Shown piece by piece: positions 15,243 through 48,279 of a DNA stretch of 56,911 bases. This stretch comes from a virus. The DNA is taken from the IMG/VR virus record IMGVR_UViG_3300006201_000024, one strand, 5' to 3'. Below the pieces are notes generated by a model. The model saw nothing but the letters and a program-made list of their open reading frames with translations. It was not told the origin of the DNA and did no database searches. Position numbers and translations under genes: made by a program. The stretch's first letter is position 1, and each line of letters opens with the position of its first letter.

Positions 15243-15255
15243 GAGGGGTGTTCTC

Positions 15256-15675
15256 ATGGCATTTAGCGGATGGCTAATAAAGTTTGGCGGAGTGACACTT
15301 CCTAACAGCTTCATCCTCGCAGATGGATGGGAAAGCACCCCGAACCAAAGGGTGGAGATTGACGCATATAGGGATGCAAATATTCTGCTGCACAGAGAAA
15401 CCAGTGAGAATTTCAAAACGTCCATAAAACTAACTATAAGAAGTCTTGACCTTGTAGAGATGACCGCTTTTAAAAATGTGATTGGCTTGGCAACGCTCAA
15501 CGTTAACGACAAGAAGCAACGAAAATTAGCAGTTAACTACTGGAATGACGAAACACTGAATTACGAATATGCAGAAATGTACATGCCGGATGTTACATAT
15601 ACGATACATACAGTCAACGAAGAAACAATGGAAATTGAATATAATTCATTTACGATTGAATTAATCGAATATTAG
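15256..15675 (+). CDS. Distal-tail-protein-position gene
   Basis: AGGAGG plus ATG15256 directly after the tape measure gene; assignment by synteny only; short (139 aa). Confidence 0.4.
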   Translation: MAFSGWLIKFGGVTLPNSFILADGWESTPNQRVEIDAYRDANILLHRETSENFKTSIKLTIRSLDLVEMTAFKNVIGLATLNVNDKKQRKLAVNYWNDETLNYEYAEMYMPDVTYTIHTVNEETMEIEYNSFTIELIEY

Positions 15676-15683
15676 GTGGGAAA

Positions 15684-17951
15684 GTGGTTGATTATGAATA
15701 TGGTGCGCTTTTCAATGACGATAGCGTAAAAAAAGAAATCATAATTAAATATGGAAATATAACTATCACGAACGAAGATTTATTTAACCAAGAGCTTGAG
15801 CTAGACGAAAGCCTTTGCAGTGAAGAACATTTAAAGTTCGGTTCGTGCGAGGCATCTGTCATTAAGTTCAGGGTTGCGAATATCGTGTCTCCAGTCAAGG
15901 GCAGCTGGATATCCGTTGGAATTGCTATAGATGGGCACACAGATAACCCGCTTTCGCTTGGAAGATACAAGGTCGAATCAGACAAGCCGACATCTGACAG
16001 GAAGTGGCGTGAAATTGTTGCTTATGATTCGCTGTACTACATGATAAACGATGAAGTTTTGGCATGGTACAACAGCGTTCTTCCAAACAAAGACACATCC
16101 ATGCAGCTGTCGCAGTTTAGAAAACTGTTTCTGCAGAAATATGGGGTGCAGGAAGAAATTGGCGATCCGTTGGTAAATGATGGAATGACCGTAACGCGAA
16201 CCATTGACCCGGACGAACTTAGCGGAGCAAAAGTCATAACGGCGATCTGTGAACTGAACGGGTGTTTTGGGCATATTGACAGAAACGGGAAATTTAAAAG
16301 CGTCCAGTTAATCCAAGGCATTAAAGGTCTATACCCAAGGAATGATCTTTATCCGGCAGATGACCTATACCCAAGAGACCCGAAGTCAACTCCGATCGGA
16401 AAAGGAATCTATATTTCGTGCGAGTATGAAGATTTTACCGTAAACAGCATAACCGGGATTGACATATACAAGGAAGAAAATTCTTTGGGTGTAAGTTCTG
16501 GAAGTTCTGAAAACAAATATGTGGTGGAAGACAATTTTCTGGTTTATGGCAAACAAGAGCAGGAATTGCGCATCATTGCAAACAACCTGCTGTCTGCAAT
16601 AAGAGGGTTAGATTACCGCCCGTTCGATGCTGAATGCAAAGGGAACCCGTGTTTCGAAGTCGGGGATCCGGTTAGGTTTTCAACAAAATATGAAATTGTA
16701 GAATCGTACATACTAAGCAGAACACTGAAAGGCACGCAGGCACTAAAAGACTCGTACAGTGCAGAAGGAACTGAAAAATATGAGATAAAAGTAAATTCCA
16801 CAAAGCGCGAGATGTCGCAGCTGTCCGGGAAAACTGAAGAGCTAGAAAGGGTTTCCGAAGAGCAGCAGGAATACATGGAAGACATCGGCGATGACTTGGA
16901 AGCAGAGGTAGAACGCGCCAAATCCGCAGAGGAAAGCATCAACGCAAGGGTTGAAGTTGTTAACAACAATATAACGCTTGAAGTGACAAGGGCTAAAAGC
17001 GCAGAGGAAACATTGTCCGGCAGGATCAGCATAACTGAATCAAATATAGATCTTGAGGTGCGGAGAGCAAAAGGAGCTGAAGAGGAACTGTACTCAAGGA
17101 TCAGCCTGACAGAAAGCAGCATAACCGCAGAGGTAAGCCGTGCCACGCAGGCCGAAGGCCAACTGTCATCCAGAATTTCAATTACTGCTGACCAGATCAG
17201 CACAAAAGTAACTGCAGGAGAGGTAACGAGCCTGATCGAACAGAACGCAAGGTCAATCAGGATGAAGGCGGATGCGATCGTCATAAACTCGACATATTTT
17301 TCCGTCGACCAGTACGGGGTGATCGACGCACAGAGCGGAACAATCGGGCCGTTTTCCCTGACCAACAACGGGTTTTCCGGGCCGGGAATTTACGTGACGG
17401 GCAGTCAGCTGTGGGTAAACAATATCACGGCACGGACTGGAAACACAGTCAACCTGCAGGGAAATCTCGAGATCAATGATAACCTGACAGCAAACGCTAA
17501 TGTAAAATTTGCAGGGGTATATTACAATACCACATCCGGTGATGCAAATGTGCATATAGGCAGCGCGGGAAACCTGAGCACCAAGAGCGGGTCATCCAGA
17601 AAATGGAAACACGCCATCGGCCCCATATCCGACAGCAGCATAGACCCGCACAGGCTGTACAGCACAAGAACATGCGAATTTATATACAATGATGATTATT
17701 TATCAAAATCTGACCATAGGAGCGGCAGGAAAATACCGGGGTTCATAATTGAAAACCTAGAAAAGGACTATCCAATAGCGGTAGACTATGACAAAAACGG
17801 AAATCTCGCCACGTGGTCTCCTAGCATGTTTATAGCTCCAATGATCGTCCTCATACAGGAGCAAAAAAAAGAAATAGACAAATTAAAGGCCGGAATGTCA
17901 ATGCTGATGTCTTTATACGGCCAGAGTGCAAGGAGGAATTTATTATGTTAA
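15684..17951 (+). CDS. Tail tip/fibre protein with C-terminal intramolecular-chaperone (peptidase S74-like) domain
   Basis: 755 aa; three repeats (LEVTRAKSAEETLSGRISITES..); C-terminus GSSRKWKH....GFIIENLEKDYPIAV....MIVLIQEQKKEIDKLK. Confidence 0.7.
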   Translation: MVDYEYGALFNDDSVKKEIIIKYGNITITNEDLFNQELELDESLCSEEHLKFGSCEASVIKFRVANIVSPVKGSWISVGIAIDGHTDNPLSLGRYKVESDKPTSDRKWREIVAYDSLYYMINDEVLAWYNSVLPNKDTSMQLSQFRKLFLQKYGVQEEIGDPLVNDGMTVTRTIDPDELSGAKVITAICELNGCFGHIDRNGKFKSVQLIQGIKGLYPRNDLYPADDLYPRDPKSTPIGKGIYISCEYEDFTVNSITGIDIYKEENSLGVSSGSSENKYVVEDNFLVYGKQEQELRIIANNLLSAIRGLDYRPFDAECKGNPCFEVGDPVRFSTKYEIVESYILSRTLKGTQALKDSYSAEGTEKYEIKVNSTKREMSQLSGKTEELERVSEEQQEYMEDIGDDLEAEVERAKSAEESINARVEVVNNNITLEVTRAKSAEETLSGRISITESNIDLEVRRAKGAEEELYSRISLTESSITAEVSRATQAEGQLSSRISITADQISTKVTAGEVTSLIEQNARSIRMKADAIVINSTYFSVDQYGVIDAQSGTIGPFSLTNNGFSGPGIYVTGSQLWVNNITARTGNTVNLQGNLEINDNLTANANVKFAGVYYNTTSGDANVHIGSAGNLSTKSGSSRKWKHAIGPISDSSIDPHRLYSTRTCEFIYNDDYLSKSDHRSGRKIPGFIIENLEKDYPIAVDYDKNGNLATWSPSMFIAPMIVLIQEQKKEIDKLKAGMSMLMSLYGQSARRNLLC

Positions 17952-18196
17952 AACAAGGTTCGAAAACTGTAAATATGAGTGCCATTTCAATGGTTGAGAT
18001 TGACGAAAAAACGAATACCGGAGTTCCGGTTATGTATATGACAGGCGTAATAAATTCTGCCGAGAATCGGTTTGATACAAATGCATCTGTTCAGAACCCA
18101 GAGCTTTATGATAAATATTATGATCAGGTAGAGAGTGACTATGCAGAATTTCGCAAAAATGTAAAAGAAGAATGCGATAAGATGCTGCAGAGTTAA
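17945..18196 (+). CDS. Hypothetical protein
   Basis: 83-aa ORF overlapping the upstream stop. Confidence 0.5.
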   Translation: MLKQGSKTVNMSAISMVEIDEKTNTGVPVMYMTGVINSAENRFDTNASVQNPELYDKYYDQVESDYAEFRKNVKEECDKMLQS

Positions 18197-18211
18197 AAGA
18201 AGGTGATTTTC

Positions 18212-19111
18212 ATGCAAAAAGCGCACAGTAATATAAACTGGGAAAATTTTCCTAGCATTAACACACCTATCAATGAACAAAATCTGAACAAAATGGACAA
18301 TGCTATTGATACGATTGACGACCGTGTAATAGCACTTGATACATCTAAATTTAATTTATCTGATGCGCAAGAGCTTATAAAAAGTCTGACATTCGACCGC
18401 GTAAACGGAGTATTTACAATTACATATTTTAATGGTTCCACTGCAACCATTGACACAATGTTGGAAAAACTTGCGGTTAATTTTGATTTTGATGAAGATG
18501 CACAGCAGCTTATCATTACCCTTGACGATGGGACAGAAAAACGTGTTGATCTATCTGCATTTATAAAGCCGATCGAGTTTATCGACAGCGGAACGATTGC
18601 ATGGCAGCTGTTGGATGGTGGGCAGGTAAGCGCGATCGTCAAAGAGGGCAGCATTGAGGAAAAGCACCTGCAACCCAATTATTTGGCAGACATAAAAGTA
18701 GAGTCTGCAAAAGCAGAATCTTCCGCAGCAGCTTCTGTTCAAAGCGCAGAAGAAGCAGAATTTTCTGCAAAGATGGCCGAGTCTCACAACCACGGCGGCA
18801 CAGGCATCCGAGATGGCGAAGACACTGATAATTCAAAATACTGGAGTGAACAGTCTAAGGATTTTAGGGACAAAACAGAGCAGGCCGGGATTGATGCGGT
18901 TAAAAACATTGATGACGCAGAAGCTGATGCCATTAAAAATATTGACGATGCAGAAGCGGATGCCATGAAGACAATAGAAAACGCCCTGTCGCTTGCAAAG
19001 CCTAATTTTTTATTTAATCCGGATGATGGATGTCTATACGGAGAAGGCGGAAGATTTGTTTTTTCATTGAATGAAGATACTATGGAATTGGAATGGGGGT
19101 TGGCACTTTGA
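18212..19111 (+). CDS. Tail fibre/baseplate upper protein-like
   Basis: N-terminus NINWENFPSINTPINEQNLNKMDNAI is typical of BppU-like fibre proteins; tandem IDDAEADA-x-K repeat at 18903-18965. Confidence 0.6.
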   Translation: MQKAHSNINWENFPSINTPINEQNLNKMDNAIDTIDDRVIALDTSKFNLSDAQELIKSLTFDRVNGVFTITYFNGSTATIDTMLEKLAVNFDFDEDAQQLIITLDDGTEKRVDLSAFIKPIEFIDSGTIAWQLLDGGQVSAIVKEGSIEEKHLQPNYLADIKVESAKAESSAAASVQSAEEAEFSAKMAESHNHGGTGIRDGEDTDNSKYWSEQSKDFRDKTEQAGIDAVKNIDDAEADAIKNIDDAEADAMKTIENALSLAKPNFLFNPDDGCLYGEGGRFVFSLNEDTMELEWGLAL

Positions 19112-20271
19112 ATCTGATAGGAAGAATCGCACCGGTTTTTAAGGCAAATTATGCCGCTGATACGGCGTATAAAAAACTAGATGTTGTTCTGTACGAATAT
19201 TCCCTGTGGCTTGCATTGCAGGATACGGCAGGAAATGCCCCGCCCGGCATCCCTGAAAATGCCGACCTGACACAGCCGATCAAAAACGACTACTGGCAGC
19301 TGTACATACCGGGAGCGCAGGTGGCCGGAGGAGAAAGTTTTGTTTCGAAGACAGACATAGCACAGGCTCCGACCGAAACCGATCCCGGAAAACTAGGCAT
19401 TTCCAGGCCAGACGGCGAAACAATCACAATCGACGAAGACGGCACCCTGCACGGAGCATCCTTGGATTTTGTCGGTACGGCAGCAGAATTAAAGGCGGCA
19501 ATTGCAGCAGGAAACGTCAAGGCAGGCATGACGGCATTTATCCGGCAGGGCGATATAGATGGAGAAGGAATGCTCGTCGAGGTCACGGAAGGCACGGGAA
19601 TGAGCATGATAGGCAAGGTCGAGGGCGGGAAATTCGTGCCGTATGCATCCATGGGAGACAAGCAGAAGGGCGTTCCGCTGTTTGTTTTTGATGATAAAGC
19701 TGCATGGCAGGAAGAATACGACGCAGGCAACGTGCCGGACGGCTCGGTAATCATACTGCTAAGAGACGAAGAGGGCGACGGATCTGGAACATATGTCACT
19801 GTTGACGGGGAATTAAGCCTCGAATCCGAAAATCCGGTGCAGAACAAGGTGATCACGCGGGAATTTGAAGACGTAAAAGCGATGAGAGGGTCAGAAACTG
19901 GGTACGGAATGGTGAAGCTGTCATCAGCGGCAGATGTGACAGACAGCGCAGGGCTTGCAGTACCGGCCAGTGAGCTTAATGCTGTCTTGGAAGGTACTGT
20001 GGCGAATAAATTAAAAAAGCTTGAGCAAAACCACGAAGAGTCTGCCAAGCTAAGCCAGAACAATGTTTTTACCGGAGGCAACACCTTTAAAGATGTATGC
20101 CCTTGGTTTACAAGTGAAACAAGGCAGGAAACCATACACTTGCAGTCATACGGTAGTCAAATGCCGATGATAGGATTTAATTGCAACGATATTATAGACG
20201 GATATCTATACATGAATGCGTCAGGAAATTTGATTTTTAGAGTATTTGGAGTTGAACATAGATTAGCTTAA
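19093..20271 (+). CDS. Tail fibre protein
   Basis: 392 aa; contains ELSLESENPVQNKVITREF and GYGMVKLSS..DVTDSAGLAVPASELN..GT, motifs shared with the downstream cassettes. Confidence 0.75.
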   Translation: MGVGTLNLIGRIAPVFKANYAADTAYKKLDVVLYEYSLWLALQDTAGNAPPGIPENADLTQPIKNDYWQLYIPGAQVAGGESFVSKTDIAQAPTETDPGKLGISRPDGETITIDEDGTLHGASLDFVGTAAELKAAIAAGNVKAGMTAFIRQGDIDGEGMLVEVTEGTGMSMIGKVEGGKFVPYASMGDKQKGVPLFVFDDKAAWQEEYDAGNVPDGSVIILLRDEEGDGSGTYVTVDGELSLESENPVQNKVITREFEDVKAMRGSETGYGMVKLSSAADVTDSAGLAVPASELNAVLEGTVANKLKKLEQNHEESAKLSQNNVFTGGNTFKDVCPWFTSETRQETIHLQSYGSQMPMIGFNCNDIIDGYLYMNASGNLIFRVFGVEHRLA

Positions 20272-20290
20272 GATTGATCGAGGTTATAAA

Positions 20291-20785
20291 ATGAGCATAA
20301 ACCAACAACAAAACGGATACCTGCATAACGTGGGAGGATATTATGTGCCGACGGACAGCGAGCTTTCCCTTGAGAGCAGAAATGCTCCACAGAACAGGGC
20401 GGTTACAGAAGAGTTTTGGAAGATCGAACGCGCCCTGTGCATGGAGAAAAACGGACTGAAAGAAATTGCATTCTTGAACAGTGACAGATACGAAATCGAA
20501 GACCGTTCAGAATCTCACGTATTTGTAAGGAACGGTCTTGCCATTGTCCAGATCAATTATGTAATTGTAAAAGACGCCGTTCCTTTAGGAGAAACGATTG
20601 CTCTGTGTTCTGGGCTGCCCGTACCGATGTTCACAAATGAATGGCACGCGTTTTCGCCTTCTTATACTAGGGAAGGGGAGCAGCTGCATATTCTGGTGGA
20701 CGGCAGCGGAAACCTCATTGCATACGGAGGAGCCAACGGAATTGGATACAGGATATCTTTTCCATATTTTATTAAAATCAGTTGA
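20291..20785 (+). CDS. Fibre-tip cassette 0 (no homopolymer; intact)
   Basis: The leader-like N-terminus MSINQQQNGYLHNVGG is encoded by an interrupted G run (GTGGGAGGA); ELSLESRNAPQNRAVTEEF motif. Confidence 0.75.
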   Translation: MSINQQQNGYLHNVGGYYVPTDSELSLESRNAPQNRAVTEEFWKIERALCMEKNGLKEIAFLNSDRYEIEDRSESHVFVRNGLAIVQINYVIVKDAVPLGETIALCSGLPVPMFTNEWHAFSPSYTREGEQLHILVDGSGNLIAYGGANGIGYRISFPYFIKIS

Positions 20786-20804
20786 TAACAGGAGGCGAGA
20801 TTAA

Positions 20805-21444
20805 ATGATATATCAACAGACGGGTGGATCGCTTTCTAAAATTTCTCTGGGGGGGGGCAATCCAAGAATTTGAGAAGCGAATAAAAGAACTGGAGAGAGC
20901 GGATGAAGAAATTTTAGACAGGATATCTAGCGCAGAAAACAGCACCCCGATAGGAACCGTCATCTCTTTTATTGGAACAACCGCGCCGGAAGGATACCTT
21001 GACTGTGACGGAGGAATACACAGCATTAACGCATATTCACAGTTGGCTGAGCACTTTAGGGCTAATTTCGGGGTTGTGAATTATTTTGGCGGAGATGGCA
21101 CGACAACCTTTGCTGTGCCAGATCTGCGCGGAGAATTTTTGCGGGGAAGTGGAACGGCCGCGCGAAACACAGGAACCGGAGCAGCAGTCGGAGTACATCA
21201 GGATCCGACAAGCGTACCTTATATATTTGACACTCCCGATGCAGAAACTATTTTCATGAAATCTGATTTGGGATATGGAAATTATATAAGCAACGGAGAT
21301 TCATACAAGGGCGCAGATACACCCGTTAAACTATATCAAATCATGCCTGATCATGTATATGGCGACAATATATCTGATCGAATCAGTGCCACGATCAGGC
21401 CGACCAATACGGCGGTCATGTACTGCATAAAAGCCAAAAATTAA
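20805..21444 (+). CDS. Fibre-tip cassette 1, tail-collar domain; out of frame at G9 (phase OFF)
   Basis: AGGAGG plus ATG20805 reads MIYQQTGGSLSKISLGGG, then stops at 20871; the body is in the +1 frame to 21444 (GTTAPEGYLDCDG...FAVPDLRGEF collar motif); G8 would fuse them. Confidence 0.7.
20849..20857 (+). repeat. Poly-G tract, G9 (cassette 1)
   Basis: ctctGGGGGGGGGcaat. Confidence 0.95.
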
Positions 21445-21461
21445 AAAAGGAGTGTGTTGTC

Positions 21462-22040
21462 ATGGGAATGTACATACAGCGTGAAGGGAGTCTTAAACAA
21501 ATTGGGTGGGGGGGGGTATGCGATGAGGTCGTTAAAAGAATTGAAAGCATAGAAGATTCGCGCGGGGACAGCGAAACGTATGGGCTTGTAAGGCTGTGCG
21601 GGCTTTCCAGTGTTACAGAAAGCATGGGGCTTGCACTTCCCGCTTCAGAAAAGAATCCGGCAACTGAGGGGACACTGGCCCACAAAATAGAGATGCTGCA
21701 AAAAATAGAAAACGCATCCATACAGCTGGGGGAAGATGTAAAAGGCAATTCAATCAGGGGCGAAACGGCCGTAAGGATCGGGAATGCCGTGCATGTATCT
21801 ATTGACATAGTATTCAACAGTGGGATAGTTCCCGAGCTTAAAAAAGAGGTCAGGCTTGCAAAAATCAGCATTCCTCCTGCTGTTCTGACAACGTTTTACA
21901 TGATTGATTTAAATATGGATCGCACTGCAATCAAGGTCAGCGGCACAGGGTACATAACAACAGACGGAGACGTTATCGGGACATTTTTTTCGGCTGCGAC
22001 ATGGGATACGTACATATTTTTTTCATACCCCGCTGCATAG
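21462..22040 (+). CDS. Fibre-tip cassette 2; in frame through G9 (phase ON)
   Basis: AAGGAG plus ATG21462; MGMYIQREGSLKQIGWGGV..SETYGLVRLC..VTESMGLALPASEKNPATEGTLA; unique C-terminus. Confidence 0.8.
   Translation: MGMYIQREGSLKQIGWGGVCDEVVKRIESIEDSRGDSETYGLVRLCGLSSVTESMGLALPASEKNPATEGTLAHKIEMLQKIENASIQLGEDVKGNSIRGETAVRIGNAVHVSIDIVFNSGIVPELKKEVRLAKISIPPAVLTTFYMIDLNMDRTAIKVSGTGYITTDGDVIGTFFSAATWDTYIFFSYPAA
21508..21516 (+). repeat. Poly-G tract, G9 (cassette 2)
   Basis: gggtGGGGGGGGGtatg. Confidence 0.95.
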
Positions 22041-22064
22041 GCAATAACAGCAAAAGGAGAAATT

Positions 22065-22627
22065 ATGGGAATATATATACAAAGAGCAGGAGCGCTCAGC
22101 CTGGTTGGGGGGGCGCGGGAGCGTGGAAAGAGGTTGAGCAGATAAAAGATTCCATGCAGGATGCACTGGGCAGGATAGAACAGATAGAGCGCCCTGCCAC
22201 CGAAGACCATGCCGGAATCGTAAGATTGTGCAGGCTTGCTGATGTGACAAAATCAGACGGGTTGGCCCTTCCGTCATCCGAGAAAAATCCCGGAATACAG
22301 GGGACGCTGGCAGAGCAGATATCTAAAAATAAAGAAGCAATAAACGACCTGACATATTACGACAGCGTGACATATGACGGCCTTTCAACAATAGATGCGC
22401 TGAAAGAATATGTCACGCATGACAGGATCAAAGATAAAACACACAGGATCGCATGGATATACAACAGAGATGGCCTTATATTTGCTGACATTTCGCGTGA
22501 CGGAATATATATATTAGGGATTTCTATGTTTTTCACGCAAGCAGCTGCATATATAAAGTTTTTTGTTAACAACCAATCGCGCTTCTATTTGTACGATGTG
22601 CCGTTTACGGAGACGATCATCCAATGA
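22065..22627 (+). CDS. Fibre-tip cassette 3; out of frame at G7 (phase OFF)
   Basis: AAGGAGA plus ATG22065 reads MGIYIQRAGALSLVGG, then stops at 22143; the body is in the -1 frame to 22627 (AGIVRLC..VTKSDGLALPSSEKNPGIQGTLA); G8 would fuse them. Confidence 0.7.
22107..22113 (+). repeat. Poly-G tract, G7 (cassette 3)
   Basis: ggttGGGGGGGcgcg. Confidence 0.95.
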
Positions 22628-22665
22628 CACAGTAAAATTAAATTAATATTTAAGGAGATGTTTAT

Positions 22666-23254
22666 TTGGGAATATATGTACAGAAAAATGGAACCCTTAA
22701 TTTTGTTGGGGGGGGGTAGAAACGATCAGGAAACTGCACAGATAAAGGAGATGCTGCAGGATGTGCAGGACAGGACAAGCCGGATAGAAACGCTAGAGGC
22801 AACAAATACAGAACGCGGAATGGTTAAATTATGCAGCCGCGAAGATGTTACGGAGAGTGCAGGGCTTGCACTTCCTGCGAGCGAGAAAAATTCTGCCGTG
22901 CAGGGAACGCTTGCGCACAGGATAAGCCTTTTGGACAGGATTCTAGTGCCGGATCTCAGCAAAAGGTTCATTATCAAACCCTTTCCTTATACGGCACTTG
23001 AAAACGGATTTGTACAGTGCTACATGAGGGCACAGCCGCAACGTGCGTACTGCCTGCACATACTTGTAAATGGAGTTCTTGTTTATGGCTATTCGCACTA
23101 TTCAATCGGAGTAGATGACATAGCCATGTCACCCGCGATCAACGTAGAAAAAGGGGACGAAATAAATTGGAGAATGAATGCGGGTGGAACAGTATACGAG
23201 TTGGAATCGTGGTTTCTCCCGATAAAAAAAGTGAGCATTCAAGATTCGCCGTAA
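22666..23254 (+). CDS. Fibre-tip cassette 4; out of frame at G9 from the homologous TTG start (phase OFF)
   Basis: AGGAG, 8 nt, then TTG22666 reads LGIYVQKNGTLNFVGGG, then TAG at 22717; the body is in the +1 frame to 23254 (RGMVKLC..VTESAGLALPASEKNSAVQGTLA); G8 would fuse them. Confidence 0.65.
22708..22716 (+). repeat. Poly-G tract, G9 (cassette 4)
   Basis: tgttGGGGGGGGGtaga. Confidence 0.95.
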
Positions 23255-23285
23255 TGAAAAAGCTAAAGGAGGAATGGATTTCAAA

Positions 23286-23892
23286 ATGTATATACAAAAA
23301 TCAGGCGCCCTGATTCCTGTAGGGGGGGGGCAGTGAAATTGCAGAAATCAGGAAGATGCTCGAAGATGCAGAAGAAAGGATAAGCCGCATTGAGGTTTCA
23401 AGGGCTTCGGAAACGGAATACGGGATGGCAAGGATTTCATCATCATCCAATGTCACAGAAGAGAATGGAATCGCGCTGCCCGCAAGAGAGAAAAACGCCG
23501 CATTAGAAGGAACGATTGCGTATGAGATCAATCGTCTAGAATCGGCGCTGCCTGTAAAACAGGTGATTTTTAGAGGGGTCTCGAAGGGGATTACATATGA
23601 AATATCAGTATATGGAAAAATCGCAGTCTATTCCATCTACGCTGACGAATCTCTAGAAGAGGTCGTCCCGTCCGGGAGCTGGTACACGTTTGCCCCGGAA
23701 AAAGTAATCCCTAGCAAATACCGGCCGAAAGACAAGCGCGTGTACAACAATAGCTTTGTAACAATCATAGGAAAAAGTATGGCCTTGATAGGCATGAACC
23801 CTACAGATGGGTGGTTTGGTCTTGGGTGGGTGTATGATTCAATCCAAAAAAACGATAAATTTTATACACAATTGATATGGAGCTTTGATTAG
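23286..23892 (+). CDS. Fibre-tip cassette 5; out of frame at G9 (phase OFF)
   Basis: ATG23286 (or the in-frame ATG23274) reads MYIQKSGALIPVGGGQ, then stops at 23334; the body is in the +1 frame to 23892 (EYGMARIS..VTEENGIALPAREKNAALEGTIA); G8 would fuse them. Confidence 0.7.
23322..23330 (+). repeat. Poly-G tract, G9 (cassette 5)
   Basis: ctgtaGGGGGGGGGcagt. Confidence 0.95.
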
Positions 23893-23922
23893 AACTTAGG
23901 AAATTGCTATAAAGGAGATGTT

Positions 23923-24490
23923 ATGCAGATCTATCAACAGATAAATGGAGAATTAGAAAAAATCGCAGTAAATTTGCCGGGGGGGGGTGTCTGACGACCT
24001 AATTAAGAGGGTTGATGCCATAGAGTCTTCTAGATCAGATTTTGATAATTATGGGCTGACAAAACTCTGTGATCTGCCAAGCATAACGGACAGCACAGGA
24101 CTAGCCCTGCCGAGCAGCGAGAAGAACGCTGCACTTGAGGGGACTCTGGCGAATATGATAGGAAAGGCAAATGCAAGGATCGACGGAATAGGTGCTAAGT
24201 TTGCAGGATTAAAGTCTATGATAAGGCTGCCGGAAAACTATGTGATGAATTTCAATGATTTTTTGGGGCCGGGATTCTATCATCTGGGATCTCTCGCTCA
24301 GAGTCCTGCGGGAAACGCGCCGGATCTTAATGTCGGGGATTACAAGGTCGTCGCATTTAACGATAATCCCCAGTTCCAAGTCCTTGTAATGTTAAGCCCA
24401 AGAGACACTGCGCATATGTATATTGGACGTTTCTGGGCCGGAACGTTTACCGGGTGGGGCGTCATAAATTTTGATAAGCTAAATGGATAA
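23923..24490 (+). CDS. Fibre-tip cassette 6; out of frame at G9 (phase OFF)
   Basis: AAGGAG plus ATG23923 reads MQIYQQINGELEKIAVNLPGGGV, then stops at 23992; the body is in the +1 frame to 24490 (NYGLTKLC..ITDSTGLALPSSEKNAALEGTLA); G8 would fuse them. Confidence 0.7.
23979..23987 (+). repeat. Poly-G tract, G9 (cassette 6)
   Basis: tgccGGGGGGGGGtgtc. Confidence 0.95.
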
Positions 24491-24514
24491 TTGTAGGAAA
24501 AGAGAGGAAAAAAA

Positions 24515-24928
24515 ATGAAAGAATTTGTAACAGCAAACGGAAGGATTTTTGAATGCAGCAGCATAACAACGGGGATCAATTCCATTACATTGGGGATGGA
24601 AAACCAGGACGCAGACGATGTTGAAGCGTTTTTCCGGGACGTGACAGGGCTGACAGTATCATTCGAGAAAGAAAGCAGCTTATCTGGATATGCAGAAGGA
24701 GATGGACAAGAACCCGTATTGGATGATCCGCACGGTATCTATACGGAGCCAAAGTTTTCTCTCGCTTTTGAGAGCGTCACGAAGTTTGAAGATGGTTCTA
24801 TTGCTGTGACCATGCACATCAAGAGCGAAATCGAAAGACGGTTGGACGCACTGGAAGAGGGGCAGAAGATCCAGAATGGTGCTATTGCAGAGCTGGCAGG
24901 AATAAACGGAGGTGATAAACGGTGGTAG
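24515..24928 (+). CDS. Hypothetical protein (between the fibre array and the lysis genes)
   Basis: 137 aa; SD GAGAGGA; no recognisable motif. Confidence 0.6.
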   Translation: MKEFVTANGRIFECSSITTGINSITLGMENQDADDVEAFFRDVTGLTVSFEKESSLSGYAEGDGQEPVLDDPHGIYTEPKFSLAFESVTKFEDGSIAVTMHIKSEIERRLDALEEGQKIQNGAIAELAGINGGDKRW

Positions 24929-24939
24929 AATTTTACATA

Positions 24940-25062
24940 ATGATGATAAATGACGAGAACATCGGGTTTGAACCGATCGACGTCCCACCAAGGTGGAGGG
25001 AAAAAGTGATTGAGGCGATCAAATCGCGCAATGGCGCAGACGAAAAATCAGCGCTAATCTGA
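24940..25062 (+). CDS. Hypothetical small protein (40 aa)
   Basis: ORF MMINDENIGFEPIDVPPRWREKV..; weak SD; below the track cutoff. Confidence 0.3.
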   Translation: MMINDENIGFEPIDVPPRWREKVIEAIKSRNGADEKSALI

Positions 25063-25087
25063 AAACAACATTCGGGAGGAATTAAAC

Positions 25088-25417
25088 ATGGACGCGCCGA
25101 TCACAAGAATTGAACACGAAGAATTTACACGGCGAATAGAGGCCGAGAACAAAAGGCTGTCAGATGAAGATAAAAGACAGAACCGTCGCATAGATGATCT
25201 AGAAGCGGCGGTGCGGGAAATGCATTCATTAGCAGCGTCTGTCGAAAAATTAGCGATCAACATGCAGAACATGCTTAAATCTCAGGAGCAGCAGGGAGAG
25301 CGCCTTGAGCGCTTAGAGAGCAGGGATGGAGAGATGTGGAGGCAGGCAACAGGGTATATAATTACAACAATCCTAGGTGCAGTAATAGGATTTGTATTTA
25401 TGCAGATGGGAATGTAG
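25088..25417 (+). CDS. xhlA: XhlA-like lysis-associated membrane protein
   Basis: N-terminal coiled coil plus a single C-terminal TM (GYIITTILGAVIGFVFMQ); precedes the holin and amidase genes. Confidence 0.65.
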   Translation: MDAPITRIEHEEFTRRIEAENKRLSDEDKRQNRRIDDLEAAVREMHSLAASVEKLAINMQNMLKSQEQQGERLERLESRDGEMWRQATGYIITTILGAVIGFVFMQMGM

Positions 25418-25426
25418 GAGGAAAAT

Positions 25427-25663
25427 ATGGACAATAAGAAAATCGACTGGAAAAGAAAACTGACAAGCCGCAAGCTGTGGGTATCCGTATGCAGCTTCGT
25501 GTCGCTGCTTTCCATGGCGGCAGGAGCAGCAGAAAGCGAGGCGGCGCAGCTTGCATCCATCATCATGGCAGGAGCCACAGTAATCGGCTATGTTGTGGGG
25601 GAGGGACTGGCAGATGCTGCAGGGGAGAAAAGACTGGATCAGGATATGGATAAAAGGGAGTAG
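25427..25663 (+). CDS. Holin (two TM segments)
   Basis: 78 aa; KLTSRKLWVSVCSFVSLLSMAAG and LASIIMAGATVIGYVVG; charged C-terminus; directly upstream of the endolysin. Confidence 0.7.
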   Translation: MDNKKIDWKRKLTSRKLWVSVCSFVSLLSMAAGAAESEAAQLASIIMAGATVIGYVVGEGLADAAGEKRLDQDMDKRE

Positions 25664-25668
25664 AGAAC

Positions 25669-26463
25669 ATGGGATATGTATTTAAGACAGAACTTGCACA
25701 CAGGAGCAATTTTGGCAGCACAAGGGCATACTCGGCAATAAAATATATTGTCATGCATTACACTGCCAATGATGGGGACAGGGCCGAAAACAACGCAAAA
25801 TATTTTCAATCTTCGCATAAGCCTGCGACGTCTGCGCATTATTTTGTAGATAATGATGTGGTTGTTCAGTCCGTGCCGGATAATTTTGTTGCATACGCAG
25901 TAGGAGGCAAAAAATATACAGACTGCGCAGCGACAGGAGGCGGAACGCTGTATGGGAAAGTCACAAACGCCAACAGCATCAGCATTGAGATGTGCGACAC
26001 GCAGCGCGACGGGAAATATCAGGCAACAGAGCAGACAATGTCAAATGCGGCAGAACTATGCCGCAGGCTGATGGACAAGTACGGCGTAGGCATTGACCAT
26101 GTCGTGCGGCATTTTGACGTAAACGGCAAGCATTGCCCGGCGTACTTTATGGACAGCGCAGCGTGGGAAAGGTTTAAGGACAGGCTGCGCACCTGCCAGT
26201 TTGAGGCGGGAAAAGTATATACCACGACAAGATCCTGTTATCTAAGGCGCAGCGCGGGCGCAAAAGATAATAAGGTAAAGCATAAAACGCTGCCGGATTC
26301 AGTCAAAAAGAAATGCCGGAATAAGCTTGGATGGGCAGTATTGAAAAAGAACAGGGCATTCCGGCTTGTCAGATGTGCGTACTCCGGCGGGAATATATGG
26401 GGAAAGATCAAAACGGGGTACTGGGTTCCTCTGATCTACAAGGGAGAAACGAGGGCGAAGTGA
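25669..26463 (+). CDS. Endolysin: N-acetylmuramoyl-L-alanine amidase (Amidase_2/PGRP) with an SH3-like C-terminal domain
   Basis: IKYIVMHYTAN..SAHYFVD...SISIEMC...HVVRHFDVNGKHCPAYF. Confidence 0.9.
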   Translation: MGYVFKTELAHRSNFGSTRAYSAIKYIVMHYTANDGDRAENNAKYFQSSHKPATSAHYFVDNDVVVQSVPDNFVAYAVGGKKYTDCAATGGGTLYGKVTNANSISIEMCDTQRDGKYQATEQTMSNAAELCRRLMDKYGVGIDHVVRHFDVNGKHCPAYFMDSAAWERFKDRLRTCQFEAGKVYTTTRSCYLRRSAGAKDNKVKHKTLPDSVKKKCRNKLGWAVLKKNRAFRLVRCAYSGGNIWGKIKTGYWVPLIYKGETRAK

Positions 26464-26477
26464 ATGCGTGCGAATAT

Positions 26478-26510
26478 TTGGTACAAATTTATTTTCAAAT
26501 GATGTACAAT
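26478..26510 (+). promoter_or_regulatory. Dispersed phage promoter-like motif, copy 4
   Basis: TTGGTACAA (26478-26486), 18 nt, TGTACAAT (-10 at 26505-26510); no ORF follows before the hairpin at 26560. Confidence 0.45.
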
Positions 26511-26559
26511 ATAATTGTTCCAAATAATCCAATCATTTCACATTCCAAATCCTCTTAGA

Positions 26560-26588
26560 GCAGCCCGGTGATCGCATGGCCGGGCTGC
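26560..26588. terminator. Bidirectional hairpin terminator between convergent genes
   Basis: GCAGCCCGG/CCGGGCTGC 9-bp GC-rich stem with an 11-nt loop; no clean U-tract on either side. Confidence 0.6.
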
Positions 26589-26606
26589 GATTATGCATGT
26601 TATTTT

Positions 26607-27200
26607 TTATTTGACGCTATCTATATCTATGGAATATCCAAGGATTTCCCCAACATCTTTACAATATCCTTTTACTGTGATTTCATCTCCGGTCGTTTTC
26701 TCCATAATTATATCTTTCTGATCGTCTGAAGTTATGTAGCATTGTATATTTGCGAGAGTGATTTCATCGGTGGTTATTCCTATATACTTTCCATCGCTGT
26801 CTACATTTCCGAGTTCTCCTTTTATTTTGAGATATTTTCCCTTGTATGCATCAGATGCTTTCATTGCATTTTTTTCTAACGCGTCTATCAGATCCTGAGC
26901 TGATACAGAAATGTATTCTATTTTTTCTTCCTTTTCGTTTTCAACTGAATTATTTTCGCTTGAGCTATCTTTTCCGCCTTCGGATGTATTTGCATTTTTA
27001 GAATTTGCCGATTGACTATCATCAGAATTTCCTCCACTCGCAGCGGCAGCTCCTATTATTAAAATTACGACCACTATCAAAATCCACTTTCCGATTCCGC
27101 CCTGCTTCTTTCTGCACTGCGGGCATATCTTAGCTCCTGCCGGAATTTCGGACTTGCAATGCTTGCATACCTTGGTTCCTTCGCTTTTTGACATTTTCAT
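26607..27200 (-). CDS. Zinc-ribbon membrane protein with an OB-fold-like (tRNA_anti-like) ectodomain; lysogeny-side moron
   Basis: CKHCKSEIPAGAKICPQCRKK, TM WILIVVVILIIGAAAA, then AYKGKYLKIKGELGNVDSDG.. Confidence 0.8.
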   Translation of the reverse strand: MKMSKSEGTKVCKHCKSEIPAGAKICPQCRKKQGGIGKWILIVVVILIIGAAAASGGNSDDSQSANSKNANTSEGGKDSSSENNSVENEKEEKIEYISVSAQDLIDALEKNAMKASDAYKGKYLKIKGELGNVDSDGKYIGITTDEITLANIQCYITSDDQKDIIMEKTTGDEITVKGYCKDVGEILGYSIDIDSVK

Positions 27201-27324
27201 ATCCTCCTATATTTTTAATACATAATATCACAAAATTATTCATAAATCAACCCTGTGTTTTGACAAAATACAATCAATGGTTTGCATTATAATAATGAAG
27301 AAAAAATATTAAGGAGGAATCATT

Positions 27325-27489
27325 GTGGAAAATCAAGAAAAAGCTATAAGCGAAAATTTGTCTGGGGGGGGGGTAAAATGGTATAGGGAAAAGATTATTG
27401 AGATGATCGAAAAAATTGAAAGCCAAAGATTTCTCAAAGCCATTTACATATCCATGTCAGACTATCTAAAAGAAAAAGAGCCGGATTGA
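27325..27489 (+). CDS. Small protein (54 aa) containing a G10 tract; in frame
   Basis: AAGGAGG, 7 nt, then GTG27325; MENQEKAISENLSGGGVKWYREKII..QRFLKAIYISMSDYLKEKEPD; paralog at 11276. Confidence 0.5.
   Translation: MENQEKAISENLSGGGVKWYREKIIEMIEKIESQRFLKAIYISMSDYLKEKEPD
27364..27373 (+). repeat. Poly-G tract, G10
   Basis: gtctGGGGGGGGGGtaaa. Confidence 0.95.
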
Positions 27490-27496
27490 CCGGCTC
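27478..27496. terminator. Hairpin shared by convergent genes
   Basis: GAGCCGG-attga-CCGGCTC overlapping both stop codons. Confidence 0.5.
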
Positions 27497-27872
27497 AATC
27501 TTCCTGCGTTTCAAATAGCTTCTTCATAAATTCCTCTACTGCTTTCAAAACCTTTGGGTCCGTTTCTGCAATGGCGTTCACCCAACGCATGATAGTTTCA
27601 TCGTCTGCCCGTTGTAGCTTTCCAACGTTGGATAAATAGCGGTTGTCTTTGCAGTCCTCTATTTTCATATCGCCCTCACCAGTACGAAGCCATTTATCAC
27701 TTATTCCACATTTTTGACAATACAACTGTATAGCGGCATCTGACGGGATTCTCCTTCCAGTTTCATAACTCGCAAGGTTTGACTGAGGTATTCCTAAAAA
27801 TTTAGCAAAAGTCTCTTGATTTTTTCCGTGTTCAGGAAAAGACTTTCTAACTTTCTTTAATCTATCTTTCAT
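27495..27872 (-). CDS. CI-like repressor (XRE-family HTH)
   Basis: MKDRLKKVRK..ETFAKFLGIPQSNLASYETGRRIPS HTH; SD AAAGGAG before ATG27872; divergent from the early operon. Confidence 0.85.
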   Translation of the reverse strand: MKDRLKKVRKSFPEHGKNQETFAKFLGIPQSNLASYETGRRIPSDAAIQLYCQKCGISDKWLRTGEGDMKIEDCKDNRYLSNVGKLQRADDETIMRWVNAIAETDPKVLKAVEEFMKKLFETQED

Positions 27873-27929
27873 CTTTTCACTCCTTTCAAAATGATTGTAC
27901 ACCAATTAGGGAAAAAAGTCTATAAAAAT

Positions 27930-28001
27930 TTGTACAAAGTACAAAAATTTTGATTGACAATAATTGTACTTAGTGCTATATTATACTTGTACGAAGTACA
28001 A
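27930..28001. promoter_or_regulatory. Lysogeny switch: operators plus rightward promoter
   Basis: TTGTACAAAGTACAA (27930-27944), TTGTACTTAGTGCTA (27964-27978), TTGTACGAAGTACAA (27987-28001); TTGACA (27954-27959), 17 nt, TATATT (27977-27982). Confidence 0.7.
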
Positions 28002-28017
28002 ACAAGGAGGTGTTATC

Positions 28018-28194
28018 ATGGCAGATATTAAAAATTTGGAACTTACCAAAGACCCTTTGACCAATATCAATATTATTTTTCCGATGCTTAATGAGCGGTC
28101 AAAAGAAGCGGTATCGCATCTGATGTTCGGTTGCTATTTGGGTGAATCTATCGCGAAGGGCAGCCAGAGAGACACGCAGCTGCAAGAAGTGTAA
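28018..28194 (+). CDS. First early-operon protein (Cro position), hypothetical
   Basis: AAGGAGGTG plus ATG28018; 58 aa; no clear HTH seen. Confidence 0.55.
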   Translation: MADIKNLELTKDPLTNINIIFPMLNERSKEAVSHLMFGCYLGESIAKGSQRDTQLQEV

Positions 28195-28228
28195 TGAAAG
28201 AAACAGCAAGGAGGTGAGGAGGTGAGAA

Positions 28229-28387
28229 CATGCAAGCATACAAAGAAAAAGAACTTCCCGAAAGAGAAAAGTTAGACCTTGTTATCGAAATAGTTAGGAA
28301 ATTTCGAGAAAAAGGTATCTCTTTCGGACAGGCTAATGAAATTTTGTCTATGGCACAAGATGAATTACCGAAACTTCCACTTAATTA
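28229..28387 (+). CDS. Hypothetical small protein (52 aa)
   Basis: Double SD AGGAGGTGAGGAGGTG before ATG28229. Confidence 0.5.
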
Positions 28388-28491
28388 ATAGTCATAGCAA
28401 AGTGGTTTGGATTGTCTTCATGATTAACAAATCTGATTTCCTTTTGTACTCAGAGGAATATTTAAACACATAAACAAAGAAAAGAGGCAAA

Positions 28492-28698
28492 ATGAAGTAT
28501 GAATACAGAAAATTAAAGGGCCGCATAAAGGAGATATTCGGGACACAGGCCGAGTTTGCTAGGGCATTGAATCTATCTAGAAATTCGGTATCCAGCAAGC
28601 TGACTGGAAGAGTAGAATTTTCGCAGTCCGATGTGGAGCGATGGGCGAAGCTCCTTGACATCGACAGGGCAGAATACGGCCTTTATTTTTACACATGA
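28492..28698 (+). CDS. HTH regulator (DUF739/XRE-like)
   Basis: GTQAEFARALNLSRNSVSSKLTGRVEFSQSDVERWAKLL. Confidence 0.75.
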   Translation: MKYEYRKLKGRIKEIFGTQAEFARALNLSRNSVSSKLTGRVEFSQSDVERWAKLLDIDRAEYGLYFYT

Positions 28699-28862
28699 GA
28701 ACTTGTGATTACAAAATCCGCATATTCAAATGCCCAGGCTGCGGAAATAGGATGTATGCCCCGAAGAATGTGAAGTTTATGACCCACGGAGGACACAAAA
28801 AGAAAATGTACTGCGCATTCTGCAAAGGTATCAGGAAGATGATGCAGATCGGAGTGAAATAG
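28695..28862 (+). CDS. Hypothetical zinc-ribbon protein (55 aa)
   Basis: ATGA overlap with the upstream gene; CPGCGN...CAFCKG. Confidence 0.45.
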   Translation: MRTCDYKIRIFKCPGCGNRMYAPKNVKFMTHGGHKKKMYCAFCKGIRKMMQIGVK

Positions 28863-28921
28863 GAATGGAGAGTATATAAATAGTCAGAAGAGGAAAAGCA
28901 TTCTGGCAGAAAGGAATGGGT

Positions 28922-29044
28922 ATGGAAATAAAAGATATCACAGTGCAGTTATGCGAATACATGGCTGAAATGGGATTCCATGTAGTAATATCTGATGGAG
29001 AGGTTGTGGAATTTGTAAAGCAAAGAGGTTGGAAGCATGATTAA
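28922..29044 (+). CDS. Hypothetical small protein (40 aa)
   Basis: Short ORF in the early operon; below the track cutoff. Confidence 0.3.
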   Translation: MEIKDITVQLCEYMAEMGFHVVISDGEVVEFVKQRGWKHD

Positions 29045-29216
29045 TATATATTGTTATCTTAACAGCTGCGTACACAACCGTGATCGCAGCTGCAGCAAAA
29101 ATACAGTTTCCATAGTAAATAAAACATCAAACGAATTTTATTGCGGCGAAAGAGTATGTTACGCCGCATGTGATGATTATGAGGAACTGGAAAAAAATGA
29201 AGAGCAAGTGGGATGA
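29037..29216 (+). CDS. Hypothetical Cys-rich protein (DUF1540-like pattern)
   Basis: 59 aa; CYLNSCVHNRDRSCS...YCGERVCYAAC. Confidence 0.4.
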   Translation: MINIYCYLNSCVHNRDRSCSKNTVSIVNKTSNEFYCGERVCYAACDDYEELEKNEEQVG

Positions 29217-29299
29217 AATAGAATATAGAATCCCGAACAAAAAACGGCTTGAAAGGCAAAGACAAGCCTATGAGGAGGCAGAAAGAGAGGATAGGGAAA

Positions 29300-29491
29300 A
29301 TGATATACCATTTGGTGATGGGGGATTTTGAATGTGCCATGAGAGAGCCTAGAGAAATCAGGTCCTGGATTGAGAATGAGATCGGGAACTATGATGGGAA
29401 GTCTTCTAGGGCAGAAGAATGGTGCAGGAATGCTTACACCGGCGATGTTTATGATGATGAGATGGTACATATTGAAGTGAAAGAAGGATAA
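29300..29491 (+). CDS. Hypothetical protein
   Basis: 63 aa from ATG29300, preceded by GAGAGGATAGGG. Confidence 0.45.
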   Translation: MIYHLVMGDFECAMREPREIRSWIENEIGNYDGKSSRAEEWCRNAYTGDVYDDEMVHIEVKEG

Positions 29492-29515
29492 TTTTATCAG
29501 GAGGATCAGGAAAGT

Positions 29516-30007
29516 ATGAGTACATTATATGAAATCACAGGAAATTACCTCCGCTTGTTGGAAATGTTGGAGGAAGAAGAAAATATTGACCCACAGGCAT
29601 TCAAGGACACCTTGGAAGGTATTGAGGGAGAGTTTGAGATTAAGGCTGATAACTATGCCAGAATTATCAAAGAACTTCGGGCAGAATCAGAAAAGTATGC
29701 TGCGGAAGTCGGACGGATGCAGAAAAGGATGGAGACTCTTGCGAACAATGAGAAGCGGCTCAAACAGCATTTGTATGAGAGCATGAAAGCTACTGGCAAG
29801 CTGAAATTCAAGACGGATTTATTCAGCTTTGGTATTCAGAAGAACGGAGGTTTACAGCCTATGGAAATTGTGCCTGACGTGGCAATCCCGGACGAATACT
29901 GCCGGAAAGAGCCGGACAACGCCAAAATCCGTGAAGCGCTCAAAGCCGGAAAGGAATTGCCTTTTGCAGTGCTGAAAGAGCGTGGAGAGCATTTGTCTAT
30001 TCGGTGA
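29516..30007 (+). CDS. Siphovirus Gp157 family protein
   Basis: MSTLYEITGNYLRLLEML..IDPQAFKDTLEGIEGEFEIKADNYARIIKEL is typical of Sipho_Gp157. Confidence 0.85.
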   Translation: MSTLYEITGNYLRLLEMLEEEENIDPQAFKDTLEGIEGEFEIKADNYARIIKELRAESEKYAAEVGRMQKRMETLANNEKRLKQHLYESMKATGKLKFKTDLFSFGIQKNGGLQPMEIVPDVAIPDEYCRKEPDNAKIREALKAGKELPFAVLKERGEHLSIR

Positions 30008-30079
30008 ACTGAATGGATATGCGGACTGCCGTTTGTGACGGTTGGAGAGGAATTATAAAAATAATAGGAGGATAGGGAC

Positions 30080-30247
30080 ATGGAAGAAAGAAATATTACT
30101 ATTACCACAGAGGAATACAAGAAGCTGTTGGAGGCATCTGTCAGAGTTTCGGTATTTGCCGACTATGTAAATCAGTCAAAGTACAGTATTGACCGAGAGG
30201 ACTGCGGACGGTTCTTAGGGTTTGAAGTGGTTAAAGAAGAGGATTAA
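30080..30247 (+). CDS. Hypothetical small protein (55 aa)
   Basis: SD TAGGAGGA before ATG30080. Confidence 0.45.
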   Translation: MEERNITITTEEYKKLLEASVRVSVFADYVNQSKYSIDREDCGRFLGFEVVKEED

Positions 30248-30275
30248 TCTTAGGAGATTGGAGGATTAGGGAAAT

Positions 30276-30905: not shown

Positions 30906-30909
30906 GGAT

Positions 30910-37945: not shown

Positions 37946-37953
37946 GGGGGGGG
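37946..37953 (+). repeat. Poly-G tract, G8, in a G-rich 5' leader
   Basis: aGGGGatttGGGGGGGGagtgtGGaGGGaaaGGG between the putative -10 and ATG37975. Confidence 0.9.
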
Positions 37954-37974
37954 AGTGTGGAGGGAAAGGGAAAT

Positions 37975-48178: not shown

Positions 48179-48279
48179 TTGCATAGGCTTGCATAACTTT
48201 GCATTTTTATTGAAAAAGGGTGTTGTTTGTGGTATATTTATTCTGCTTGCAATGCTCTTTTTGTATAGAAGGGAGCAGT

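Follow-up and report, generated by a model that had tools for sequence, protein, structure and literature searches.

The viral genome IMGVR_UViG_3300006201_000024, analyzed here over its full length of 56,911 nucleotides (the window), carries behind its main tail fiber gene a tandem array of seven small genes, all on the plus strand, between positions 20291 and 24490. Six of these cassettes (C1 to C6) contain a pure G tract (G7 to G9) starting 12 to 19 codons past the start codon, which gates the reading of the body from the leader, and the remaining one (C0) does not. We call a cassette ON when it is open from its homologous start to its end and OFF when it is not. The array reads as follows.

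20291..20785, plus strand: C0, ungated cassette, leader MSINQQQNGYLHNVGG, glycine codons GGA GGA, no homopolymer, constitutively in frame.
20805..21444, plus strand: C1, gated, with a tail-collar tip; G9 at 20849-20857; OFF; ON at G8 or G11.
21462..22040, plus strand: C2, gated; G9 at 21508-21516; ON here; in frame at G6 or G9.
22065..22627, plus strand: C3, gated; G7 at 22107-22113; OFF; ON at G8 or G5.
22666..23254, plus strand: C4, gated, TTG start; G9 at 22708-22716; OFF; ON at G8 or G11.
23286..23892, plus strand: C5, gated; G9 at 23322-23330; OFF; ON at G8 or G11.
23923..24490, plus strand: C6, gated; G9 at 23979-23987; OFF; ON at G8 or G11.

In the window, only C2 is open from start to end, and the other five gated cassettes are one G off ON; as assembled, they yield peptides of 16 to 26 amino acids. 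The consequences of slippage were simulated by reading every tract of the six cassettes at lengths from two G fewer to two G more. Exactly one frame class per cassette gave a product of 186 to 214 amino acids, the other classes ended at 16 to 32 amino acids, and a single-unit change in tract length toggled all six cassettes between a full-length and a truncated product. A preliminary description of this DNA had already listed the positions and lengths of the six tracts, the premature stops behind them, one ON cassette with five others a single G away, and a Shine-Dalgarno sequence ahead of each gene. All of this was borne out on rechecking: tracts and stops lie where they had been placed, C2 alone reads through, the others become full length at G8, and the Shine-Dalgarno sequence is present for 7 of 7 genes.

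The encoded proteins share one order of parts, namely, a leader of about 14 to 18 amino acids, a Gly-Gly-Gly linker encoded by the pure G run, a short helical stalk, a conserved junction block (GLALPxSEKNxxxxGTLA), and a C-terminal domain. The C-terminal domains are beta-rich, about 90 to 110 amino acids long, and unrelated to one another. The common leader and the GLALPxSEKN block, together with the recurrence of this block in the main fiber, were recovered as first described, and so was the tail-collar domain of C1, since the frame-corrected protein matches Pfam Collar (PF07484, E = 6.9e-16).

The window holds nine G runs of at least 7 bases and no C run of at least 7, while about 0.18 runs of at least 9 would be expected from base composition. 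GGG makes up 18.8% of glycine codons, and GGG-GGG occurs in only 1 of 84 Gly-Gly pairs of other genes. Furthermore, the tracts are still pure although leader DNA has diverged between cassettes to as little as 65 to 73% identity and the junction block to 63 to 79%. The protein itself has no need for a homopolymer, since the leader of C0, which has an orthologue at 92% in the related contig L001, is spelled GGA GGA.

In three OFF cassettes, the body frame is open upstream across the tract (20824-21444, 22001-22627, and 22658-23254). These open reading frames (ORFs) of 198 to 208 amino acids have false N termini (e.g., MDRFLKFLWGG) and are found in databases as P0001, P0009, and P0022. Consequently, gene callers list ordinary-looking ORFs at such loci, and the frameshift is masked in annotation and in protein databases alike.

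Contigs of the same phage from other samples, located by exact-protein look-ups, revealed that the tracts vary in nature. In the Joint Genome Institute (JGI) sample 3300006145 (contigs L024/L029), the sole difference from window positions 14291-30928 (16.6 kb) is a C2 tract of G8 instead of G9, by which the only ON cassette of the window is turned OFF. In JGI 3300006149 (contig L040), the sole difference from window positions 17923-30490 (12.6 kb) is a C6 tract of G8 instead of G9, and here C2 and C6 are both ON. Thus, one phage is found in three states, with none, with C2, and with C2 plus C6 ON, out of the 2^6 that six independently switching tracts would allow. The chance of both sole differences landing in tract bases is about 1e-5, and within the part of the genome for tail, lysis, and lysogeny, only the tracts differ between the window and these siblings. 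The C1 tract is G9 in all sibling contigs. The G8 ON form predicted for C6 (188 amino acids) is present exactly in the public collection as P0152; the ON forms predicted for C1, C3, C4, and C5 had no exact match in that collection.

The rest of the JGI 3300006149 contig differs from the window by one single-nucleotide polymorphism and one mosaic patch at 55.0 to 56.0 kb, so the two genomes are near-identical rather than identical. The patch (55000-56000) holds 139 differences within 1 kb, which indicates a recent recombinational replacement.

A related phage, assembled from five SRR runs (L041 to L045), has eight gated cassettes. In L041, the orthologues of C5 and C6 and one more cassette are ON at G8, three in all, and the orthologues of C1 and C4 are OFF at G9. 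The C5 orthologue is G8 and ON in L041, L042, L044, and L045, and all five runs give G8 for the orthologues of C5 and C6 and G9 elsewhere. Additional length changes were seen in the C3 tract, which is G7 in the window and G9 in L001 and L041, and between contigs L002 and L003, where one tract is G9 versus G10. Hence, both ON and OFF alleles are found for C2, C5, and C6. The notion that an array holds at most one ON cassette proved wrong, given two in JGI 3300006149 and three in L041. Poly-G slippage switching, as first proposed from the window alone, is supported by these single-G indels between sibling assemblies. The comparison of tract lengths in relatives that had been suggested along with it yielded an ON-to-OFF change for C2 in 3300006145 and an OFF-to-ON change for C6 in 3300006149, and the predicted G8 ON forms have counterparts in the related phage, whose C5 and C6 orthologues are ON at that length.

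The arrays also seem to recombine at defined places. L001 (97.9% identity) lacks, at 3605-4180 compared with window positions 20805-22040, exactly the DNA between the C1 and C2 tracts, and this deletion has joined the C1 leader to the C2 body in a hybrid cassette. Leaders and bodies occur in other combinations in L041. Furthermore, P0002 and P0006, encoded on contigs L002 and L003, are identical for 80 residues from the N terminus, as far as GTLA in the block, and continue into unrelated C-terminal domains, which indicates tip swapping at the block. Taken together, these three cases suggest that the tract and the block both behave as recombination joints.

Relatives of the array were found through the gene directly downstream, an anchor that is unbiased for tracts, and through contigs encoding homologues of the cassette proteins, the route that led to L002. 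The anchor gene and the arrays found are the following.

24515..24928, plus strand: conserved 137-amino-acid gene closing the array, the anchor for finding relatives.
IMG/VR contig L008: four gated cassettes, all G9, all OFF.
L035: seven gated cassettes plus ungated ones, one ON at G8.
L037: five gated cassettes, one ON at G8.
L002: three or more gated cassettes, all G9, all OFF.
L034, L038, and L039: short contigs with one gated cassette each, ON at G9 in L038 and OFF in L034 and L039.

These contigs, the window, L001, and L041 are the ten sources of a census of 38 non-redundant tracts. G9 accounts for 29 of the 38 tracts (27 of these 29 OFF), G8 for 5 (5 of 5 ON), G10 for 2, and G7 for 2, and 7 of the 38 cassettes are ON altogether. 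Thirty-two cassettes are in frame at a length of 8 or 11, four at 7 or 10, and two at 6 or 9. Overall, the gated design occurs in at least nine phage lineages, with up to eight gated cassettes per array.

A profile of stalk and block matches 541 clusters at 50% identity, ordinary full-length fibers included. Its short members have in-frame leaders as well as alternative-frame or truncated N termini, of the kind assigned to OFF cassettes by gene callers, and its long members are tail fibers annotated in PHROGs, with the block ahead of the C-terminal tip. Since 14 more distant IMG/VR relatives and a prophage of Maccoyibacter intestinihominis have a single block-bearing fiber, no array, and no G run of at least 7, the gated array looks like an innovation of one clade. 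These more distant relatives carry no information on switching itself. Other searches added little. Megablast of window positions 17000-26500 against cultured phages gave no match, and single-protein locus searches with the fiber in IMG/VR and with Tal in GTDB genomes returned nothing. A locus search of IMG/VR with the cassette alignment gave 32 pattern matches, at chance level by our own estimate and none confirmed, and a DNA pattern of leader plus G8 in IMG/VR gave one true match (L005) and three by chance.

Ungated cassettes stand beside gated ones in L035 (2483-3214 and 6407-6961) and in L008 (5649-6155), and their glycine linker is written in mixed codons or absent, as in C0. Gated and ungated cassettes are thus mixed in these arrays, such that each phage keeps constitutive tips beside switchable ones.

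With regard to the genome as a whole, an exact 70-nucleotide direct repeat joins the two ends of the window (1-70 and 56842-56911), which makes the assembly circular and the genome complete at 56,841 bp. This is a complete, circular, integrase-encoding temperate phage of the siphovirus type. The genes before the array encode a tape measure protein, a DUF6711 protein, a 755-amino-acid Tal-like protein, a 302-amino-acid tail protein, and the fiber. After the array come the conserved 137-amino-acid gene, holins, an amidase, and the lysogeny module, and elsewhere lie replication genes, the terminase, and a Tn916-type integrase. Three neighbors need separate mention.

18203..19111, plus strand: upstream tail protein, 302 amino acids, matching phrog_17196 at 5.8e-56.
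19093..20271, plus strand: main tail fiber, 392 amino acids, with a weak match to the tail-fiber family phrog_5073.
27325..27489, plus strand: ORF of 54 amino acids in the lysogeny module, with G10 at 27364-27373, in frame here.

The main fiber has its own ungated C-terminal stalk, block (GLAVPASELN, which aligns with those of the cassettes), and tip, and full-length homologues of it exist (P0017 and P0050). The 302-amino-acid protein is a possible anchor for the fiber or the tips; in another phage, its homologue is fused to a stalk, block, and tip module (P0032).

The nearest cultured phage is Roseburia phage Jekyll, through the Tal protein only (45% identity), which has one long fiber and no G tracts, and a distant prophage relative is the one in M. 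intestinihominis. From these two pointers, the host is probably a Lachnospiraceae gut bacterium. The Tn916-type integrase (48220-49497), with a Xis-like gene directly upstream, lies right after the minor capsid gene (46607-47884); this is an unusual site for a phage integration module, which may be a separate inserted element.

Two further G runs lie outside the array. The ORF of 54 amino acids is flanked by two lysogeny genes of the minus strand, one tRNA_anti-like and the other encoding a helix-turn-helix repressor, and had no family match. In L035, the homologue is out of frame, with a G9 tract. The ORF seems to represent another type of gene gated by poly-G, one that might bear on the lysis-lysogeny decision. 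An intergenic G8 run at 37946-37953 lies just upstream of an ORF at 37957-38424 (phrog_38832, function unknown) and is unchanged in L048, the one sibling contig that covers it. This run could tune a promoter or a ribosome-binding site.

At the DNA level, single-G length changes toggle the cassettes, natural ON and OFF alleles exist, and OFF cassettes keep their coding capacity. We consider it very probable that the array is a bank of alternative tail fiber tip genes, each phase-switched by slippage at its G tract. It is important to consider the points that weigh against this reading. All tract lengths are assembled consensus values rather than read-level data. At C1, C3, C4, and C5, all sibling assemblies covering the tract agree on one consensus length, the majority of cassettes are OFF, and C1, C3, and C4 are OFF in every genome seen. 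The sibling samples probably come from only two studies and may not represent independent communities. Firmicute hosts have mismatch repair, so homopolymer slippage is expected to be lower than in Campylobacter; the Campylobacter hosts of Fletchervirus phages are not known to have mismatch repair. As to the products, their role as receptor-binding tips is suggested by position, by one Collar domain, and by the block shared with the fiber. Five of the six C-terminal domains had no match in Pfam, PHROG, or PDB, and searching PDB sequences with the cassette profile gave no meaningful match. AlphaFold2 models of C2 were unusable, with a predicted local distance difference test score (pLDDT) of 46.6 from the single sequence and 48.7 from an 11-row alignment. 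Finally, the products, of about 190 amino acids, would have to attach to the virion without the N-terminal domain of the fiber.

The last of these points, i.e., C-terminal domains of no recognizable family, poor structure models, and the missing fiber N-terminal domain, leave some room for products other than receptor-binding tips. The switch would then be real, but it would act on decoration or adhesion proteins or on non-structural proteins of superinfection or immunity; the poly-G gene of the lysogeny module speaks in the same direction, as the phage then gates non-tail genes too. We regard this as unlikely, if the least unlikely of the alternatives considered. The cassettes belong to the late tail operon, with the Tal and fiber genes before them and the holin and other lysis genes after them, and no credible terminator was found on the plus strand within the array. 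Stalk and block are common to the main fiber and to long annotated tail fibers, in which the block precedes the C-terminal tip, and C1 ends in a tail-collar domain. The exchange of tips between P0002 and P0006 at the conserved block points the same way, as tip exchange at a conserved junction is typical of receptor-binding protein evolution.

A different objection concerns the level at which the switch acts. If programmed recoding at G9, by RNA polymerase stutter or a ribosomal +1/-1 shift, were the main route of expression, every OFF cassette would give a small, fixed fraction of full-length product from unchanged DNA, and the DNA length changes would be incidental. The uniformity of G9 (29 of 38 tracts) would fit this, with 27 of 29 such tracts out of frame versus two-thirds for a random frame. 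Stutter could also serve both the cassettes that need -1 (32) and those that need +1 (4), since both kinds stand at G9, and several leaders run into a stop right after the tract (GGG GGG GGG TAA or TAG), a context that could favor a shift. The excess of OFF states is only weakly significant (p = 0.03, with tracts that are not independent) and is given no weight here, because paralogous cassettes have for the most part inherited their frame relation, such that the 38 tracts are not 38 independent observations. Against recoding, DNA-level ON alleles occur at exactly the predicted lengths (5 of 5 G8 tracts ON), and the ON/OFF tract changes are the sole differences between otherwise identical genomes. 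In addition, bacterial RNA polymerase is well known to slip on A/T runs, and slippage on G runs has far less documentation. Recoding as the main route is thus also improbable, and slightly more so than a different role of the products. Transcriptional or ribosomal slippage on G9 may nevertheless act as an added route, which predicts a near-uniform G9 that is out of frame.

Homopolymer frameshifts are a classic sequencing artifact, and four of the five OFF tracts are one G too long, as might be expected if they were consensus miscalls and all cassettes were truly in frame. This explanation is very hard to maintain. The same lengths were obtained from independent JGI and Logan assemblies of different samples, the five SRR runs agree among themselves, and contigs of unrelated phages in ENA, Logan, JGI, and IMG/VR show the same pattern. 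Other homopolymers of the window leave their ORFs intact, i.e., A9 (35856) and T9 (36338) runs lie inside an intact ORF of 376 amino acids, and the G10 (27364) and G7 (54674) runs are in frame. Lengths reproduced across assemblies, together with intact homopolymers elsewhere, make miscalls unlikely, and since C2 is in frame at G9 but four other cassettes are out of frame at that length, no single systematic miscall mends all of them.

Between the window and L041, the ratio of nonsynonymous to synonymous substitution rates (dN/dS) of the cassette bodies is 0.14 to 0.41, with no indels and no stops. By cassette, it is 0.28 for C1, 0.41 for C3, and 0.14 for C4, and all three are OFF in both genomes. 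Pooled counts (Nd 50 and Sd 48 differences versus N 2088 and S 594 sites) reject neutrality at p = 5e-9. OFF cassettes are therefore under purifying selection, without extra stops, and are not decayed pseudogenes. That they are decaying copies of a duplicated fiber 3' end, broken at the G tracts, is scarcely credible, even though 31 of 38 cassettes are OFF, C1, C3, and C4 among them wherever seen, and cassette content turns over fast among relatives, because every OFF body keeps an open frame of 140 to 226 codons under this constraint, the tract is always the sole lesion, 1 to 2 G from ON, throughout some nine divergent lineages, the same cassettes also occur as ON alleles, and the tracts have stayed pure next to leader DNA at 65 to 73% identity. 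Miscalls and decay were the two scenarios that the preliminary description had named as fatal to its proposal, and neither holds.

Under the interpretation of a phase-switched bank of fiber tips, slipped-strand mispairing at a G tract during DNA replication would add or remove one G, and the body would move into or out of the frame of its leader. As this shift is set by the cassette's own tract, each cassette would switch independently and reversibly. The products of ON cassettes would be made from the late tail operon, trimerize, and dock through their common leader on the tail tip. There they would sit beside the constitutive fiber and C0 and add receptor specificities, and the resulting host range variants would act as a bet hedge. 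G9 may be a mutational attractor, as in Campylobacter jejuni, in which case a cassette turned ON at G8 or G10 would stay so only transiently. Recombination at the tracts and at the conserved block would in addition reassort leaders, bodies, and tips.

A wider proposal can be put forward only tentatively, and we think it may well not hold in full: the array could be a combinatorial host range switchboard that is OFF by default. In nearly all cassettes, the frame would be set so that G9, the length favored by mutation, is OFF. A few genomes of each burst would carry a G8 or G10 tract for a short time and so add one tip to the constitutive fiber, with RNA polymerase stutter on G9 perhaps putting traces of every tip on each virion and the tracts serving as microhomology joints for deleting and reshuffling leaders and bodies. 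G tracts would then be a general regulatory device, as the poly-G gene of the lysogeny module suggests, and the design would be common in Lachnospiraceae gut phages but hidden by the false N termini from gene callers.

Host range is a major unknown for gut phages, and it is difficult to account for ranges that are broad or that shift. If the proposed function is true, up to eight independently switching tips would allow one temperate genome to sample many receptors while its default tip is kept. Routine annotation conceals such switches, as OFF cassettes are called as ordinary ORFs with false starts. Named public samples already contain three expression states of one phage, which offers a concrete, testable system. 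The leader, G tract, and junction block could also serve as a natural scaffold for engineering switchable phage host range.

Several known systems diversify phage tips by other means. As with Gin of Mu, Cin of P1, and the shufflons, alternative C-terminal fiber specificities lie side by side and the choice is stochastic. In Mu and P1, site-specific inversion yields one tip or the other, whereas the cassettes described here would switch independently and their tips could add up. An invertible segment or shufflon was rejected for the window, in which all cassettes are on the plus strand and inverted repeats are limited to chance-level matches of 14 to 23 nucleotides; no invertase was found, the only recombinase being the Tn916-type integrase with its Xis. 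A diversity-generating retroelement (DGR) was likewise rejected, with no reverse transcriptase domain in ORFs of 300 amino acids or more and no template/variable repeat pair, the direct repeats being only the paralogous leaders and blocks (60 to 85% identity). Like the DGR of BPP-1 Mtd, the array would target diversification to the tip, but it turns a fixed repertoire ON and OFF instead of mutagenizing one tip.

Arrangements of several receptor-binding proteins (RBPs) of about 160 to 260 amino acids, with a common N-terminal dock and variable heads, exist in lactococcal BppL-type RBPs and CBA120 tailspikes. In multi-RBP phages and small baseplate RBPs, expression is constitutive and modules are exchanged at conserved junctions. 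The PDB sequence search with the cassette profile detected no homology to Gram-positive baseplate RBPs.

Contingency loci of coliphages T2 and T4 consist of runs of 6 or more bases in many gene classes (Gomez, Barrick and Waters 2025, PMC12633550), and in that survey, homopolymer loci are under-represented in tail fibers. Homopolymer slippage in phage genes as a bet hedge is common to both cases; here, long G9 tracts are concentrated in fiber tip genes. The poly-G tracts of C. jejuni have a modal length of nine, with an insertion bias at G8 and a deletion bias at G11 (Bayliss et al. 2012, PMC3401435). The cassettes resemble these loci in having the tract in the 5' coding part, a one-unit ON/OFF switch, a mode of nine, and purity against codon bias. 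They differ in being viral, in clustering within a single array of structural paralogues, and in that the modal G9 is nearly always OFF.

The closest parallel is found in Fletchervirus phages of Campylobacter, for which PMC8713573 and PMC12633550 describe up to four RBPs, two of them phase variable, with poly-G tracts of 7 to 11 bases. As summarized in the same two sources, tract changes there lead to phenotypically mixed phage populations (Sorensen et al. 2021, Cell Rep 35:109214). In both systems, poly-G tracts lie inside phage fiber or receptor-binding genes (putative ones in the present case), tract length sets expression, and there are several such genes per phage. However, Fletchervirus phages are lytic myoviruses of a Gram-negative, poly-G-rich host, whereas the phage studied here is temperate, of the siphovirus type, and probably infects Lachnospiraceae. 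Unlike the Fletchervirus genes, the cassettes form a tandem bank of 6 small paralogous genes (up to 8 in relatives) with a common leader and an identically placed tract. A DNA and protein search of 50,697 phage records with the region and C6 gave no match, and literature searches turned up no earlier description of such an array, in a Gram-positive phage or otherwise, in line with what had first been said of its novelty for Gram-positive hosts. These results strongly support the view that the array is a multi-gene version of a host range switch so far known from Campylobacter phages, alike in mechanism and not homologous, and if its products are tips, the poly-G gating of RBPs would extend from a few Campylobacter phages to widespread gut phages of Firmicutes.

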